64,000 bases of DNA from a virus (lineage: Duplodnaviria; Caudoviricetes), in the IMG/VR virus record IMGVR_UViG_3300021963_000022. The stretch is one strand, 5' to 3'. The notes beneath the pieces are model-generated. The model was not told the DNA's origin, made no database searches, and worked only from the letters and a program-made list of their open reading frames with translations. Shown here in pieces: positions 11,584 through 21,745 of the stretch. The position numbers and the translations under genes are program-made. Position 1 is the stretch's first letter. Each line of letters begins with the position of its first letter.

Positions 11584-11799
11584 ATGGCAAAAGAAGAAGG
11601 TATTAAGATGGATGGTAGGGTAATCGATGTATTACCCAATGCCGTCTTTAGAGTCACTCTTACCAGTGGGCCCACTGTCACTGGTTACATATCAGGTAAA
11701 ATGCGTAAGCATGATATTAAAATTCTACTAGGTGATACAGTAGAGGTAGAATTCAGCCCATATGATTTGACAAAAGGTCGCATCACTCGCCGACGTTGA
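11584..11799 (+). CDS. infA: translation initiation factor IF-1
   Basis: [54 protein letters not shown]. Confidence 0.96.
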
Positions 11800-16452: not shown

Positions 16453-16869
16453 TTATTTCTCCAAGATATAAGGTTTATCCCATTTGCCGATGTTAACATC
16501 AACATAGTAGGCAGTGTTGAAATAATCGGTCATTGCATCCGATTCGTCATACCAATCGGCAGCTTTTAATGCCTTGAATGCTTCGGTCAAGAATGCCTTA
16601 GCCTTGCCATCATAGTGATCTTGGAACCAGTAAGGGTTAACTTGATCATAGCCATTAGTATTGGGCTTGAATCCACGAGCTACTTGATAGTGGTCATTGC
16701 CACAAACACGATTGCTGTTACCGATAAAGTCAATAGCACCGGATTTGAGGGTTAAAACAATAGTCATGTGACTACGGACACTCAAGGATCCTTTAACTTT
16801 ATACTTAGCCAAGATTGGCTTGAGTGCTTGTGCAATCTTTGCTTTGCGTTCTTGATTCATGTAAGCCAT
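16453..16869 (-). CDS. hypothetical early phage protein
   Basis: 138 aa ORF behind promoter; C-terminal DYFNTAYYVDVNIGKWDKPY. Confidence 0.8.
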   Translation of the reverse strand: MAYMNQERKAKIAQALKPILAKYKVKGSLSVRSHMTIVLTLKSGAIDFIGNSNRVCGNDHYQVARGFKPNTNGYDQVNPYWFQDHYDGKAKAFLTEAFKALKAADWYDESDAMTDYFNTAYYVDVNIGKWDKPYILEK

Positions 16870-17422
16870 TTCGTATTCCTTTGTTTAACTGTTTAAGATT
16901 CTATTGTAGCACAATGCCCATTTATTGTCAAATTATTGTTCCATCGGATCACCAAGAAAATACTCGGTTACATAGGTGACAACAATGTCTTTGCCGGAAT
17001 GAATACGCAAGTACTCACCTAGAGCTTCTACATTGCGGAACAAATAACCATTTGCTTTGTACATTTCTTAGTCCTCTTTATCAGTTTCAATACAAGTATT
17101 GTAGCACAGGATCCATTTATTGTCAAATTTCACTAAATTCGCTAGAACTGTATCAGTATAGATTCCTGAGAATCCTAGCGATTTTGAAGCACCGGGACGG
17201 TGAAAATGAGTACTTTTGTATGCAAAAAAGTACTACGAAAGTACTAAAATTAGGGTCAACTATTGACGGTATTGTACGGGGTATAATCTTCTTCTAGGTC
17301 ATAAACCGCAGCCTGATACACCCAAGAAACCGGGATTTCTAGCATCCTAGCAATTGTTACAGGGTTAGTACCCACTAACAATAGGTTGCGGATTTCAATA
17401 TCCAAGTCTGCCATTTTACTCA

Positions 17423-17698
17423 TTACAAAACCTCCAACATGTTAGCGGGCACTTTCCAACTACGGAAGTTAGCCGGCTCATCTACAATAATAAATTTACG
17501 ATTGATTTTCTTTACAACACCGGAGATTGCACCGCGCTTTGAACTAGAGAATTTAACATTAGATCCAACTGTCAATGCCGATTTGTTACGCACCACTAAT
17601 TGGGCACGGGCAAAACGCATTGCATCACCGATGCTATTCAATTCTTCGTTAGTGAAGTCACCCTGCATGATAGCAGTATTAATTTGCTTGATGTTCAT
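17423..17698 (-). CDS. hypothetical early protein (SH3-like C-terminus)
   Basis: 91 aa ORF behind consensus promoter. Confidence 0.7.
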   Translation of the reverse strand: MNIKQINTAIMQGDFTNEELNSIGDAMRFARAQLVVRNKSALTVGSNVKFSSSKRGAISGVVKKINRKFIIVDEPANFRSWKVPANMLEVL

Positions 17699-17760
17699 TT
17701 GAACTCCTTTTGACTGAATAAGACTCTATTATATACCCAAACCGATTTATTGTCAACCTT

Positions 17761-18000
17761 TTATTGTTTGATGTTTTTCATTGCATTTTCCATGTCTTCC
17801 AGATGCTTGCGATACTGGATACGGCCAAGATTGATATTGTACATCACATAGACTAGTATTGCAATACAAAATGAGATTCCGATATATGGAATCGCTGTTG
17901 CGGGAATGAGGGTAAGCAAATAAACTGTAGCACACCCTGCTATTGCGGCGAGTGCAATTTCTTTTGCAGTTTGTGCGACTGCTTGTGTTTTATCTGACAT
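17761..18000 (-). CDS. small membrane protein
   Basis: Two hydrophobic segments; promoter and AGGA RBS upstream. Confidence 0.7.
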   Translation of the reverse strand: MSDKTQAVAQTAKEIALAAIAGCATVYLLTLIPATAIPYIGISFCIAILVYVMYNINLGRIQYRKHLEDMENAMKNIKQ

Positions 18001-18057
18001 GTTGAATTTCCTTTCTAAATTTCAATGCAAATATTATAGCACCAAAAGGATTTAATG

Positions 18058-18267
18058 TCAACCTTTTAGTTTATGAATTAGTTCATTGTAATAAGATCCG
18101 GGTAATTCTTGTAGTGCATCTAGGAGCAATGCTTCAATCCTTCCGGTAACATACAATGCCGCATCTATTCTATTGCCTGGACGGCGATCCAAACAAGACT
18201 TAAACTGCCTAGATATAAATTCATCTACCAGTTGTTTGTGTAGTTCTTTTTTGGTAACGTCTTTCAT
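18058..18267 (-). CDS. hypothetical protein
   Basis: 69 aa ORF overlapping the upstream ORF by ATGA. Confidence 0.65.
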   Translation of the reverse strand: MKDVTKKELHKQLVDEFISRQFKSCLDRRPGNRIDAALYVTGRIEALLLDALQELPGSYYNELIHKLKG

Positions 18268-18422
18268 ACAAGTACCTCTCGGTTTGGATGTTTGTCTTTA
18301 CGACGGTATTGTACTTTGGATTGTACAACCTTAGGTTTGAACGGAGTGTTGCTACAAAACAACACTTTGTGGGCCCGATGTTTGGGCTGTTCAATAGTGA
18401 ATGATATAGTTCTTCGTTTCAT
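18264..18422 (-). CDS. ArfA-like small basic protein (52 aa, not in ORF track)
   Basis: MKRRTISFTIEQPKHRAHKVLFCSNTPFKPKVVQSKVQYRRKDKHPNREVLV; perfect TTGACA-17-TATAAT promoter directly upstream. The ORF is well supported; the function is inferred. Confidence 0.55.
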   Translation of the reverse strand: MKRRTISFTIEQPKHRAHKVLFCSNTPFKPKVVQSKVQYRRKDKHPNREVLV

Positions 18423-18454
18423 AATGCGTATTATAGCATAGAAACATATTTATG

Positions 18455-19552
18455 TCAACTTTCGGAAATACCTTGGTAGTTCTGTAGTAGTTTTTGTATT
18501 GCTGAATTTGCATCAGTACCATTACGTAGAGCCTCTGCTACATCATCAATGAATTCTGTTTGGAAGTCTTGTTTTGTTTCTGGACTTAAGCTACGATATT
18601 TTGCGGCTACTGCACTATTTGCTGTCATATGTTTGTTCCACAATTCTTGTGCATGACCACTACTTTGTGACATTTGACTTTGTTGTTGCTGTTGTTGAGC
18701 CTGTTGTTCCTTATCCTGTTTTACTTTGTTTGCACGTTGAATATACTTAAAGCGATTAGGATCCTTCTTCTTCAAGTCAGTGCGGCTAGCATGGTACTTA
18801 TCTGTTACAGGTCTAAACTGCCCACCATATGGATTGAACAATAAGAACTCTGCATCCTCATCACTTAGATTGCCTATCCCCTTTTGTACATCACTTTGTA
18901 GTTGCTTGATGCCTTTATTATATGCATCATAGTCTGCACCTGTTAATGTATTTGCAGGGAAATCATTATCCATATCAATTTGTGGATAGTTGGCTGAATC
19001 TTTGCTATGTAAGTAGTTCATACCTTTAGCAGTAAATTGGTCTAGTATAAAAGCTCCCTTACCCGGACGTAAAAAGTATAATACCTTTGTAAAGAAACTT
19101 ACACCTAACCCAGGAAGTAATTGTAGTTTACGCAATCTTTGAATCAGGTCAAATGCTTGTGCATTTGTTAGATCACCAAAACGTATTTCGTTTAATGCAT
19201 TGTTGACTTGTCGTCTTGCTTCTTTGTCGTTCTTTAATTTCTTGTACAGTAGTTTGGGGTTGTTAGCACGATTGACCATACCGCCCCAGGCCATAATATA
19301 GAATAACAATTTTAAACTACTATTAGCTTTATCGGCAACCATTGCTTTAACTTCAGGCTTACTGTTTGTAGTAGTTGGATAGTTTTGTGGATTGTTCATT
19401 CCAGAAACAGATGCTAAACGACTAGGGTTATACTTTGCAGGTCCCCTGGCATCCATATATTTGTTACCTTGTGGATCGCTTTGTTGAAGCATTTTCCACT
19501 CGGCTTTTAATAATTTTAAATCTTGTTTGTCAAGCACTTCATTAATACGCAT
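18455..19552 (-). CDS. protein with 8-oxoguanine glycosylase (OGG)-like HhH region
   Basis: IMAWGG and LPGLGVSFFTKVLYF followed by ILDQ; Gln-rich C-terminal part. Confidence 0.6.
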   Translation of the reverse strand: MRINEVLDKQDLKLLKAEWKMLQQSDPQGNKYMDARGPAKYNPSRLASVSGMNNPQNYPTTTNSKPEVKAMVADKANSSLKLLFYIMAWGGMVNRANNPKLLYKKLKNDKEARRQVNNALNEIRFGDLTNAQAFDLIQRLRKLQLLPGLGVSFFTKVLYFLRPGKGAFILDQFTAKGMNYLHSKDSANYPQIDMDNDFPANTLTGADYDAYNKGIKQLQSDVQKGIGNLSDEDAEFLLFNPYGGQFRPVTDKYHASRTDLKKKDPNRFKYIQRANKVKQDKEQQAQQQQQQSQMSQSSGHAQELWNKHMTANSAVAAKYRSLSPETKQDFQTEFIDDVAEALRNGTDANSAIQKLLQNYQGISES

Positions 19553-19580
19553 ATAGTATTTATTCTACTATGTATTAATC

Positions 19581-19865
19581 CTATAGTAGTCTGAATAGGG
19601 CAACACTGTCTATGGTTGTAAGTAACAAATAATTTGCCAACATACCAAAACTGTTACGTGACCAAGCCGCCCAAGCATACATACCACAACTAGCAATAGT
19701 TAGTGTAAGATACCATATAAAAGGAACAGCAGGTACAGAACTTGCAAACCAAATTGCTGCACCTATGCTCATGGACCAAGCTAAGGTTTCTATTACAAAT
19801 CTAATTGGATTACTTTTCCAATCCTCTTTGATCCAATTAACTGTACCAGATAATATATTGGTCAT
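19581..19865 (-). CDS. membrane protein
   Basis: Three hydrophobic segments. Confidence 0.7.
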   Translation of the reverse strand: MTNILSGTVNWIKEDWKSNPIRFVIETLAWSMSIGAAIWFASSVPAVPFIWYLTLTIASCGMYAWAAWSRNSFGMLANYLLLTTIDSVALFRLL

Positions 19866-20161
19866 TGACTACAGGTTCGTTCTCTGTATAAACGACCATC
19901 TGCTGTTTGAATCTCTTTCCACTCAGTACAAATTAATGGCTGAGGTGATTGTTGAATGACAACAGGTTGTTGGACAACTATTGGTTGTTGACGTCCTAAT
20001 TCATAACTTATGGCACCAATTACTATAGGTGCTACCCACCAACCCATGCCCGGTCCACGATGATAGCCACCATGGTGACCGTGATGACGGAATCCATGAT
20101 GTTGTGCTACTGCTGAACCTGCTAATACTAATAGTGATATTGCTACTATAATTTTTTTCAT
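19862..20161 (-). CDS. secreted His/Gly-rich hypothetical protein
   Basis: Signal peptide, HHGFRHHGHHGG, terminal Cys pair. Confidence 0.7.
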   Translation of the reverse strand: MKKIIVAISLLVLAGSAVAQHHGFRHHGHHGGYHRGPGMGWWVAPIVIGAISYELGRQQPIVVQQPVVIQQSPQPLICTEWKEIQTADGRLYRERTCSQ

Positions 20162-20188
20162 AGTATTCTCCTATATATGTATAACGTA

Positions 20189-20389
20189 TTACTCAAGTGT
20201 TCCGTTGACTTTGTGTAAGTCAATTGCTTCTTGTAATACAAGTTCTACCATTTTATTTAGCGTAATGTCACGCTTGTGTGCTTCCATAGCTAACTGATAG
20301 ATGTCATGTTCATCTAAATTCAATTCGATTTCGACTCTATTATCTTCTTTTACTGGTTCTGTCATTTTTCTTCCTTGATTTTTTTGCAA
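20189..20389 (-). CDS. small ribbon-helix-helix/HicB-like hypothetical protein
   Basis: LAMEAHKRDITLNKMVE pattern. Confidence 0.55.
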   Translation of the reverse strand: MQKNQGRKMTEPVKEDNRVEIELNLDEHDIYQLAMEAHKRDITLNKMVELVLQEAIDLHKVNGTLE

Positions 20390-20582
20390 CCTCTACTAAA
20401 GGAGCAATGTTGTTGTCATAAATTTGAGCCATAGTTCTATATAACCCTGTGCGTTCTTGGGGCGTCATTCCAGCACACCAAGGTGGGTCATTCGGATCCC
20501 TGTCTAATCCATAATCATGTCTATATGTTAGACACATATCATGGATAATTTTCTCACGGTTATTGGAATCTATATTAATCAC
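20340..20582 (-). CDS. hypothetical protein
   Basis: 80 aa ORF. Confidence 0.6.
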   Translation of the reverse strand: MINIDSNNREKIIHDMCLTYRHDYGLDRDPNDPPWCAGMTPQERTGLYRTMAQIYDNNIAPLVEVAKKSRKKNDRTSKRR

Positions 20583-21407: not shown

Positions 21408-21745
21408 TATTTTACTCCAAAAGTGTTTAATGCAGGTTGCATTGTGTTAATTAATTCTGTCTCACGGCTATGTGCTGGCTTCTTACCACGCACAACCTCG
21501 ATGACTCCAAATATAAAACTCTCGGCACCACGTTCACATAGGGCACGTGACAAACCCCAGTTTTTGTTCTCAGTCAAGGCACGTTGCATATGTTTTTGCA
21601 TACGACGGCGTAGTGTCAAAAACACATTGCCTTTATATGACAATGCAGTTAAGCCGATATAATACTCAAATGTTACAACATCTTGGATGTAGTAAATCAC
21701 TTGGTTACGATCGGTCCTACGTTTGCGGGTGCTTTTTGAGTTCAT
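21407..21745 (-). CDS. small GIY-YIG-like nuclease domain protein
   Basis: VIYYIQ..YYIGLT, R..KH, E..LI..MQPALN. Confidence 0.75.
   Translation of the reverse strand: MNSKSTRKRRTDRNQVIYYIQDVVTFEYYIGLTALSYKGNVFLTLRRRMQKHMQRALTENKNWGLSRALCERGAESFIFGVIEVVRGKKPAHSRETELINTMQPALNTFGVK

Follow-up and report, generated by a model that had tools for sequence, protein, structure and literature searches.

Within a 64,000-nucleotide (nt) stretch of the IMG/VR virus record IMGVR_UViG_3300021963_000022, referred to here as the window, a small open reading frame (ORF) on the minus strand encodes a basic peptide of 52 amino acids (aa). The source is a giant, uncultured lake phage, and the peptide belongs to a family found in uncultured freshwater T4-like giant phages. 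A preliminary description of this DNA, which gave no strand, had pointed to the ORF as an unannotated early gene located behind a perfect promoter and had likened its product to the ribosome rescue factor ArfA. The ORF is indeed present (Table 1), and the two protein segments placed side by side in that description are accurate: the phage segment is exactly residues 26-48 of the window peptide, and the Escherichia coli segment is ArfA residues 22-48 as translated from NC_000913.3. Here, we report a computational analysis of this gene, according to which the peptide is best explained as a "pre-truncated" and divergent representative of the small rescue peptides that make up the ArfA/DUF7230 group, and as the product of a real early gene. 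ArfA-type peptides are already known, with a few phage copies annotated; what is new in this family is that curated models do not recognize it as ArfA, that it has a different N-terminus and no KGKGS motif, and that its expression, as predicted from the sequence, is leaderless and unregulated in a conserved manner.

Table 1. Features of the peptide gene and its promoter, in positions of the window
Feature	Positions	Strand	Basis
-35 hexamer TTGACA; contains the TGA stop codon (18457-18455) of the upstream gene for a 365-aa OGG-like protein	18453..18458	-	
Extended -10 element: TG (18438-18437), C, TATAAT (18435-18430)	18430..18438	-	
7-nt gap ACGCATT without a Shine-Dalgarno sequence, followed by the A of the ATG (18422), the predicted transcription start	18422..18429	-	
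ArfA/DUF7230-like peptide gene, 52 codons plus stop	18264..18422	-	ORF, homologues, pN/pS
Hydrophobic mid-region, residues 15-28	18339..18380	-	hhalign and conserved columns
Basic tail, residues 29-48	18279..18338	-	alignment with E. coli ArfA
ATGA overlap of the TGA stop of the peptide gene with the ATG of the next gene (69 aa, 18058-18267)	18264..18267	-	sequence

The peptide gene is conserved under purifying selection. A word-indexed search retrieved 35 close homologues with 66-100% identity and 13 invariant columns, an exhaustive phmmer search yielded 57 representatives of clusters formed at 50% identity, and about 194 relatives of the peptide were confirmed in IMG/VR, 80 of which were fetched and form the basis of all neighborhood counts given below. 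In 49 distinct sequences compared over their first 36 codons, synonymous polymorphism (pS) was 0.54 and nonsynonymous polymorphism (pN) was 0.13 in the frame of the ORF, a ratio of 0.25, compared with 0.52-1.80 in the other five frames. No relative was detected among 50,697 phage records, either by megablast with 1.9 kb of the locus or by tblastn with the peptide; a search of the window peptide against NCBIfam produced no match, and a search against PHROGs produced weak matches only, to families of unknown function. In one 524-kb record, IMGVR_UViG_3300027749_002876, the peptide gene occurs twice, at sites some 336 kb from each other, which may reflect either two related phage genomes joined in the record or a gene duplication.

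The promoter is as perfect as initially described, with TTGACA and TATAAT separated by 17 nt and matching the consensus at 12 of 12 positions, and it additionally carries the TGn extension of the -10 box. Within 10 kb, there are four such perfect sigma-70 sites, every one of them on the minus strand and in a run of small ORFs, when only about 0.001 would be expected by chance (our own arithmetic); the minus-strand promoters together with the run of small ORFs have the look of a T4-type early region. This promoter architecture is shared throughout the family. At all 81 loci analyzed, which represent 51 distinct upstream sequences, TTGACA is followed after 17 or 18 nt by TATAAT or TATACT, accompanied by the TGn extension at 78 of them, and the distance from the -10 box to the ATG is always 6, 7 or 9 nt, with no Shine-Dalgarno-like word in this gap at any of the 81 loci. 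Transcription usually starts about 7 nt past the -10 box and, given the short gap, the transcript would therefore start at the AUG or within two bases of it, so that the peptide mRNA is probably leaderless, with a start site predicted from promoter geometry.

The lambda cI mRNA transcribed from PRM offers a comparison. In both cases, the AUG is located at, or at most 2 nt from, the expected transcription start and is not preceded by a Shine-Dalgarno sequence, but the arrangement in the window is associated with a strong consensus early promoter, is maintained across 81 loci and has a start that is a predicted one. Contigs from four metatranscriptomes overlap positions 17404-17858, 18789-18999 and 19285-19525, which belong to neighboring genes and are outside the ORF. 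The same arrangement occurs elsewhere in the window, where the minus-strand ATGs at 21745 and 23493 (genes for 112 aa and 254 aa) are preceded, 6 or 9 nt ahead, by TTGACA-N17-TAnnnT; the leaderless-type layout is therefore not unique to the peptide gene.

When the window peptide was compared with Pfam, its best match was the uncharacterized family DUF7230 (PF23876; E = 2.7e-4, 21.4 bits), over residues 28-50 only. Among the 35 relatives, DUF7230 matched 33 and ArfA matched 7, the latter weakly (best E = 0.014), and two close relatives carry a precomputed Pfam DUF7230 label. A comparison of profile hidden Markov models (HMMs) with ArfA, a check proposed in the preliminary description, was performed with hhalign using a diverse ArfA alignment from 31 Enterobacterales genomes, and detected profile similarity that withstands both shuffling and reversal (probability 87.7, P = 3.4e-6, score 36.4, 35 columns). 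Residues 15-50 of the phage family align with ArfA 13-50, with a single 3-residue gap opposite G-K-G. As controls, the ArfA alignment was shuffled 400 times, across all columns in 200 runs and across the core columns in the other 200, with scores averaging 9 (standard deviation 2, maximum 19.5), and the reversed ArfA alignment scored 13.5; with the highest shuffled score at 19.5 and the real one at 36.4, composition is therefore not the explanation of the match. A second hhalign comparison, based on other alignments, returned a probability of 79.3.

The same relationship was observed at the level of whole genomes. Searched against all six frames of five bacterial genomes, the family HMM produced one match in each, at 19.5 bits or less, and comparison of coordinates identified this sole match as arfA in all four ArfA-bearing genomes and as the DUF7230 gene in the fifth. 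The sole match of the Pfam DUF7230 model in the six frames of the entire E. coli genome lies, likewise, inside arfA. By hhalign, the phage family is also similar to bacterial DUF7230 (probability 88.6, P = 2.7e-6), over the tail only, whereas the direct comparison of DUF7230 with ArfA is weak (probability 6), and the phage family is thus placed between the two. Its likeness to ArfA spans a longer stretch than its likeness to DUF7230, taking in the mid-region that, by alignment, would face release factor RF2. The hhalign result, the whole-genome matches and a phage ArfA that passes both Pfam models (see below) support the originally noted resemblance, and we consider it very likely that residues 15-50 are homologous to ArfA 13-50, with the tail homologous also to DUF7230.

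Cultured phages encode closer counterparts of bacterial ArfA. A tblastn search with E. coli ArfA identified homologues in phages pf16, Arash, J2-1, RXM and RsoM2USA, none of which was found by tblastn with the window peptide. GenBank already has an ArfA annotation for Pseudoalteromonas phage J2-1 (ATN93434.1) and for g10 of Citromicrobium phage RXM, the latter also described as an annotated ArfA in the literature (PMC8953757). The 51-aa J2-1 protein passes both Pfam cut-offs, with 41.3 bits to ArfA (residues 7-46) and 28.6 bits to DUF7230 (residues 26-50); its residues 28-49 align with residues 28-49 of the window peptide at 55% identity and, as in the window peptide, its tail has no KGKGS. 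Like the window family, the cultured-phage ArfAs are phage-borne and short (40-60 aa), and have real stop codons soon after the basic tail. The differences are that they exceed the Pfam ArfA cut-off and keep the ArfA N-terminal motif, neither of which is the case in the window family, and that they have ordinary Shine-Dalgarno sequences.

Three of these genes had escaped correct annotation or any annotation at all. The ArfA homologue of Pseudomonas phage pf16 (395-538 of the extracted stretch; 72 bits to Pfam ArfA) is unannotated, with a hypothetical gene called on the opposite strand, and that of Salmonella phage Arash (398-541 of the extracted stretch; 70 bits) is labeled "ribosomal protein L2". 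In Ralstonia phage RsoM2USA (434-556 of the extracted stretch), an unannotated 40-aa ORF has an N-terminus like that of DUF7230 (N-V-V-A-K) joined to a KGKGS tail of the ArfA type. The J2-1 protein shows the opposite mix, which suggests that the ArfA and DUF7230 families exchange halves.

Structural and mutational data on E. coli ArfA allow the conserved residues to be put in context. Residues 31-48 of ArfA lie in the mRNA tunnel, and the protein stays active when cut at N47 but is inactive when cut after M40; the backbone of residues 25-29 pairs with RF2 residues 213-217, and L19, L24 and F25 make up a patch that binds RF2 Trp319 (PMC5378476). The minidomain at the N-terminus (residues 2-16; Ile11 packs on Ala18) becomes ordered as RF2 opens and is the switch that brings RF2 to its active form, and the A18T substitution inactivates E. 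coli ArfA (PMC5378476). By alignment, L21 and F22 of the phage family correspond to ArfA L19 and L20, F28 corresponds to F25, and the strand F-K-P-K-V is opposite F-R-Q-R-V; in the tail of the window peptide, Y39, R41, K42, K44, H45, N47 and R48 all occur with the same numbering in E. coli ArfA. L21, F28, F-K-P-K-V, Y39, R41, K42, K44 and H45 are invariant or nearly so, the Y-x-R-K-x-K-H core of the ArfA tunnel segment being present and near-invariant, and the conserved part of the phage peptide stops at R48. The alignment of these conserved residues with the L19/F25 patch, the strand at 25-29 and the tunnel segment at 31-48 is a point in favor of a role in ribosome rescue, although the third patch residue, L24, is not retained.

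The GKGS stretch, the absence of which had been noticed from the start, corresponds to the gap opposite ArfA G35-K36-G37 in the hhalign alignment; K-K-G is retained in some relatives. The KGKGS motif has been reported to be non-essential for ArfA, and the tail of ArfT reads KKGGSTNKK (PMC6299226). At the other end of the peptide, the phage family has P-K-x-R-A-H-x-V-L-F in place of the N-P-V-A-K-H-A...F-N-K-A of DUF7230. An AlphaFold2 model of the monomer (mean predicted local distance difference test score 78, predicted template modeling score 0.24) takes the form of an extended chain whose sole helix, a short one, spans residues 19-22; a peptide that becomes folded only once bound to its target could look like this, although the model is not diagnostic. 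ArfT of Francisella and BrfA of Bacillus are, similarly, small basic peptides that are thought or have been shown to sense the empty mRNA channel and to recruit RF1 or RF2, but no sequence similarity between either of them and the window peptide was detected.

The phage gene also differs from its bacterial counterparts in the way its product would be made. Bacterial ArfA is produced from non-stop mRNA and its gene has an in-ORF hairpin or terminator and a hydrophobic C-terminal extension, none of which is present in the phage gene: the window ORF ends with a true TGA stop at codon 53, no long 3' hairpin of the RNase III or terminator type was found in it, and the genuine stops of the other phage ArfAs are similarly placed. 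Phage forms are thus apparently made at the length that bacterial ArfA reaches only after mRNA cutting, and should escape control by transfer-messenger RNA (tmRNA). At 52 aa, the window peptide is the size of active E. coli ArfA (52-55 aa), with which it also shares a hydrophobic L-L/L-F pair followed by an F-basic-x-basic-V strand, as well as the identical tail residues; it differs from that RF2-dependent protein (YhdL; PF03889) in being phage-encoded, in its leaderless promoter arrangement and in its unrelated residues 1-14. A 9-bp hairpin is present in the middle of the ORF (18343-18366, minus strand; codons 20-27), and the whole peptide mRNA folds with z = -2.5 relative to shuffled sequences.

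Other translation genes accompany the peptide gene. The IF-1 gene and the tRNA array mentioned in the preliminary description are both there, the latter comprising 27 tRNA genes; the IF-1 homologue (11584-11793, plus strand) has 60% identity with E. coli IF-1 across 70 residues (tblastn E = 8e-25). A tblastn search of the window with E. coli S21 found no S21, and an Rfam search of positions 16500-20500 gave no match. Two complete relatives, of 524 kb and 367 kb, encode a beta-type two-piece tmRNA (95 and 44 bits, respectively). No RF-1-domain protein was found in the records of five relatives (two complete and three fragments), and these phages apparently bring no release factor of their own.

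With moderate confidence, we predict from these sequence comparisons that the peptide is an unregulated, release-factor-dependent ribosome rescue peptide. Under this scenario, host RNA polymerase would transcribe the leaderless mRNA straight after infection, and the basic tail (residues 29-48) of the product would enter the mRNA tunnel, empty in ribosomes that have stalled at the 3' ends of damaged messages. In the A site, a host release factor (RF2, possibly RF1) would be held in place by the F-K-P-K-V-V strand together with the L21/F28 patch, the nascent peptide would thereby be freed without a stop codon, and ribosomes would return to the pool during the breakdown of host mRNA by phage or defense nucleases.

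Several observations weigh against this prediction. The window peptide falls below the DUF7230 gathering threshold of 27 bits and shows no match to Pfam ArfA (PF03889, threshold 25.5 bits) at E values up to 10, and because it misses the ArfA threshold, "ArfA-like" is the right wording rather than "an ArfA". The KGKGS motif is missing, as is the minidomain, residues 1-14 being without an ArfA counterpart; the position of ArfA A18 is occupied by Val, and an invariant Pro stands in place of L24. The aligned stretch is short and basic, and may reflect convergence on an rRNA-binding motif. Furthermore, the literature searched contained no experimental work on a phage ArfA.

The main rival is that the tail sits in the tunnel or A site while the N-terminus activates no release factor, in which case the peptide would be a blocker or gatekeeper, for example one that keeps host tmRNA-SmpB, ArfB or toxins cutting mRNA in the A site off the ribosome, or one that steers rescue to the phage tmRNA. 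The concentration of the homology in the tunnel-binding tail, the lack of relationship between residues 1-14 and the RF2-activating minidomain, the Val at the A18 position and the tmRNA carried by the relatives are all in keeping with such a role. However, conservation extends to the strand that contacts RF2 and to two of the three residues of the patch, features for which a pure plug would have no need, and every characterized relative (ArfA, ArfT and BrfA) recruits release factors, so that we regard this alternative as unlikely.

Less likely still is a reading in which this small, basic early protein binds nucleic acid and acts on something other than the ribosome, such as host DNA, RNA polymerase or an RNA, and in which its likeness to ArfA results from the convergence of short K/R-rich motifs. 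Only about 35 residues can be aligned, the scores are modest (in the single genomes as well as against the Pfam cut-offs), and no PDB chain matched in a profile search at E values up to 10, with those of BrfA and ArfA among the chains covered. Convergence of this kind is difficult to reconcile with the column shuffles, which keep composition and never came near the real score, and with the recovery of arfA as the top match in four of four genomes, each time among millions of six-frame positions. Moreover, the matches extend to non-basic positions (L, F, V, Y, H and N), and the J2-1 protein is a natural intermediate.

A rescue role of the wider group, and with it the favored function, gains support from the bacterial DUF7230 proteins, which are found in Methylococcales and other Gammaproteobacteria. 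They share with the phage family the tail D/S-K-x-x-Y-x-R-K-x-K-H, but their genes are chromosomal and longer, have an in-ORF hairpin and encode the N-terminal N-P-V-A-K-H-A that is absent from the window peptide. All 13 DUF7230 genes extracted from a sample of Methylococcales contain a long, perfect-looking stem directly after R-K-x-K-H, and the same in-ORF stem was found in 5 of 10 DUF7230 genes from a class-wide sample; such a stem is a hallmark of arfA. The stems are roughly 13-33 bp long, two of them terminator-like with a U-run, and in most genes they lie 10-30 codons ahead of the stop, with the stop inside or just after the stem in two genes of the class sample. The genes with in-ORF stems include those of Methylotuvimicrobium and other Methylococcales.

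The phyletic distribution of the two families is complementary. Among 151 sampled genomes of Methylococcales, the order of Methylotuvimicrobium buryatense, DUF7230 was present in 80 and Pfam ArfA in none, whereas among 151 sampled genomes of Enterobacterales, ArfA was present in 44 and DUF7230 in 3, without a single genome containing both. This pattern is confounded by phylogeny and so is only suggestive; in a class-wide ArfA sample, 3 of 201 genomes were positive. DUF7230 looks like an unrecognized ArfA-type rescue factor.

To our knowledge, ArfA, ArfT and BrfA are known only as bacterial back-ups to tmRNA, and no phage copy has been studied. If the prediction for the window peptide is correct, this phage family would display the minimal working core of ArfA, namely, the tail and the RF2-facing strand, with the N-terminus swapped and the tmRNA-linked control gone. 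Giant phages would then manage stalled ribosomes themselves, alongside their tRNA and IF-1 genes and the tmRNA of the relatives, and the phage in question probably supplies its own means of keeping the ribosomes of its host in use. A testable function would also follow for Pfam DUF7230, which occurs in roughly half of the Methylococcales genomes sampled, all of them without Pfam ArfA.

A more elaborate scenario, in which all these observations are joined, is speculative and fairly improbable as a whole. According to it, the peptide would be half of a viral rescue kit, the other half being the phage tmRNA; the new N-terminal module would alter the factor that is recruited or its activation (RF1 in addition to RF2, or some partner that is not a release factor); and the leaderless mRNA would be translated on 70S ribosomes, such that the peptide is made in the first moments of infection even when initiation or mRNA is under attack by defense nucleases. 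The family would, in addition, be an evolutionary bridge that marks DUF7230 as the missing ArfA-type factor of Methylococcales and other bacteria.

The immediate neighbors of the peptide gene vary. Downstream, the gene for 69 aa is present in only 7 of the 80 relatives, with the ATGA overlap every time. Upstream, the product of the gene at 18455-19552 (minus strand) is 365 aa long and contains a poly-Gln stretch as well as an OGG-like glycosylase domain (Pfam PF21790, E = 1.9e-16); an OGG-like gene adjoins the peptide gene in 1 of the 80 relatives. A functional tie of the peptide to either neighbor was rejected on the basis of these counts. Given this variation, the peptide gene stands as an independent module and does not serve as a leader for a neighbor: although its stop overlaps the next start, it is highly improbable that the ORF is a short upstream ORF that regulates the 69-aa gene through its translation and encodes a functionless peptide, because the peptide sequence is conserved in all relatives, including those without that gene, across 57 diverged clusters and with the low pN/pS at substantial pS described above. 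The conserved neighborhood consists of genes for a 94-aa membrane protein (70 of 80 loci), a 91-aa ProQ-C-like protein (67 of 80) and a 66-aa protein (73 of 80). Because it is found at this position in so few relatives, the OGG-like gene is probably a recent insertion between conserved early genes.

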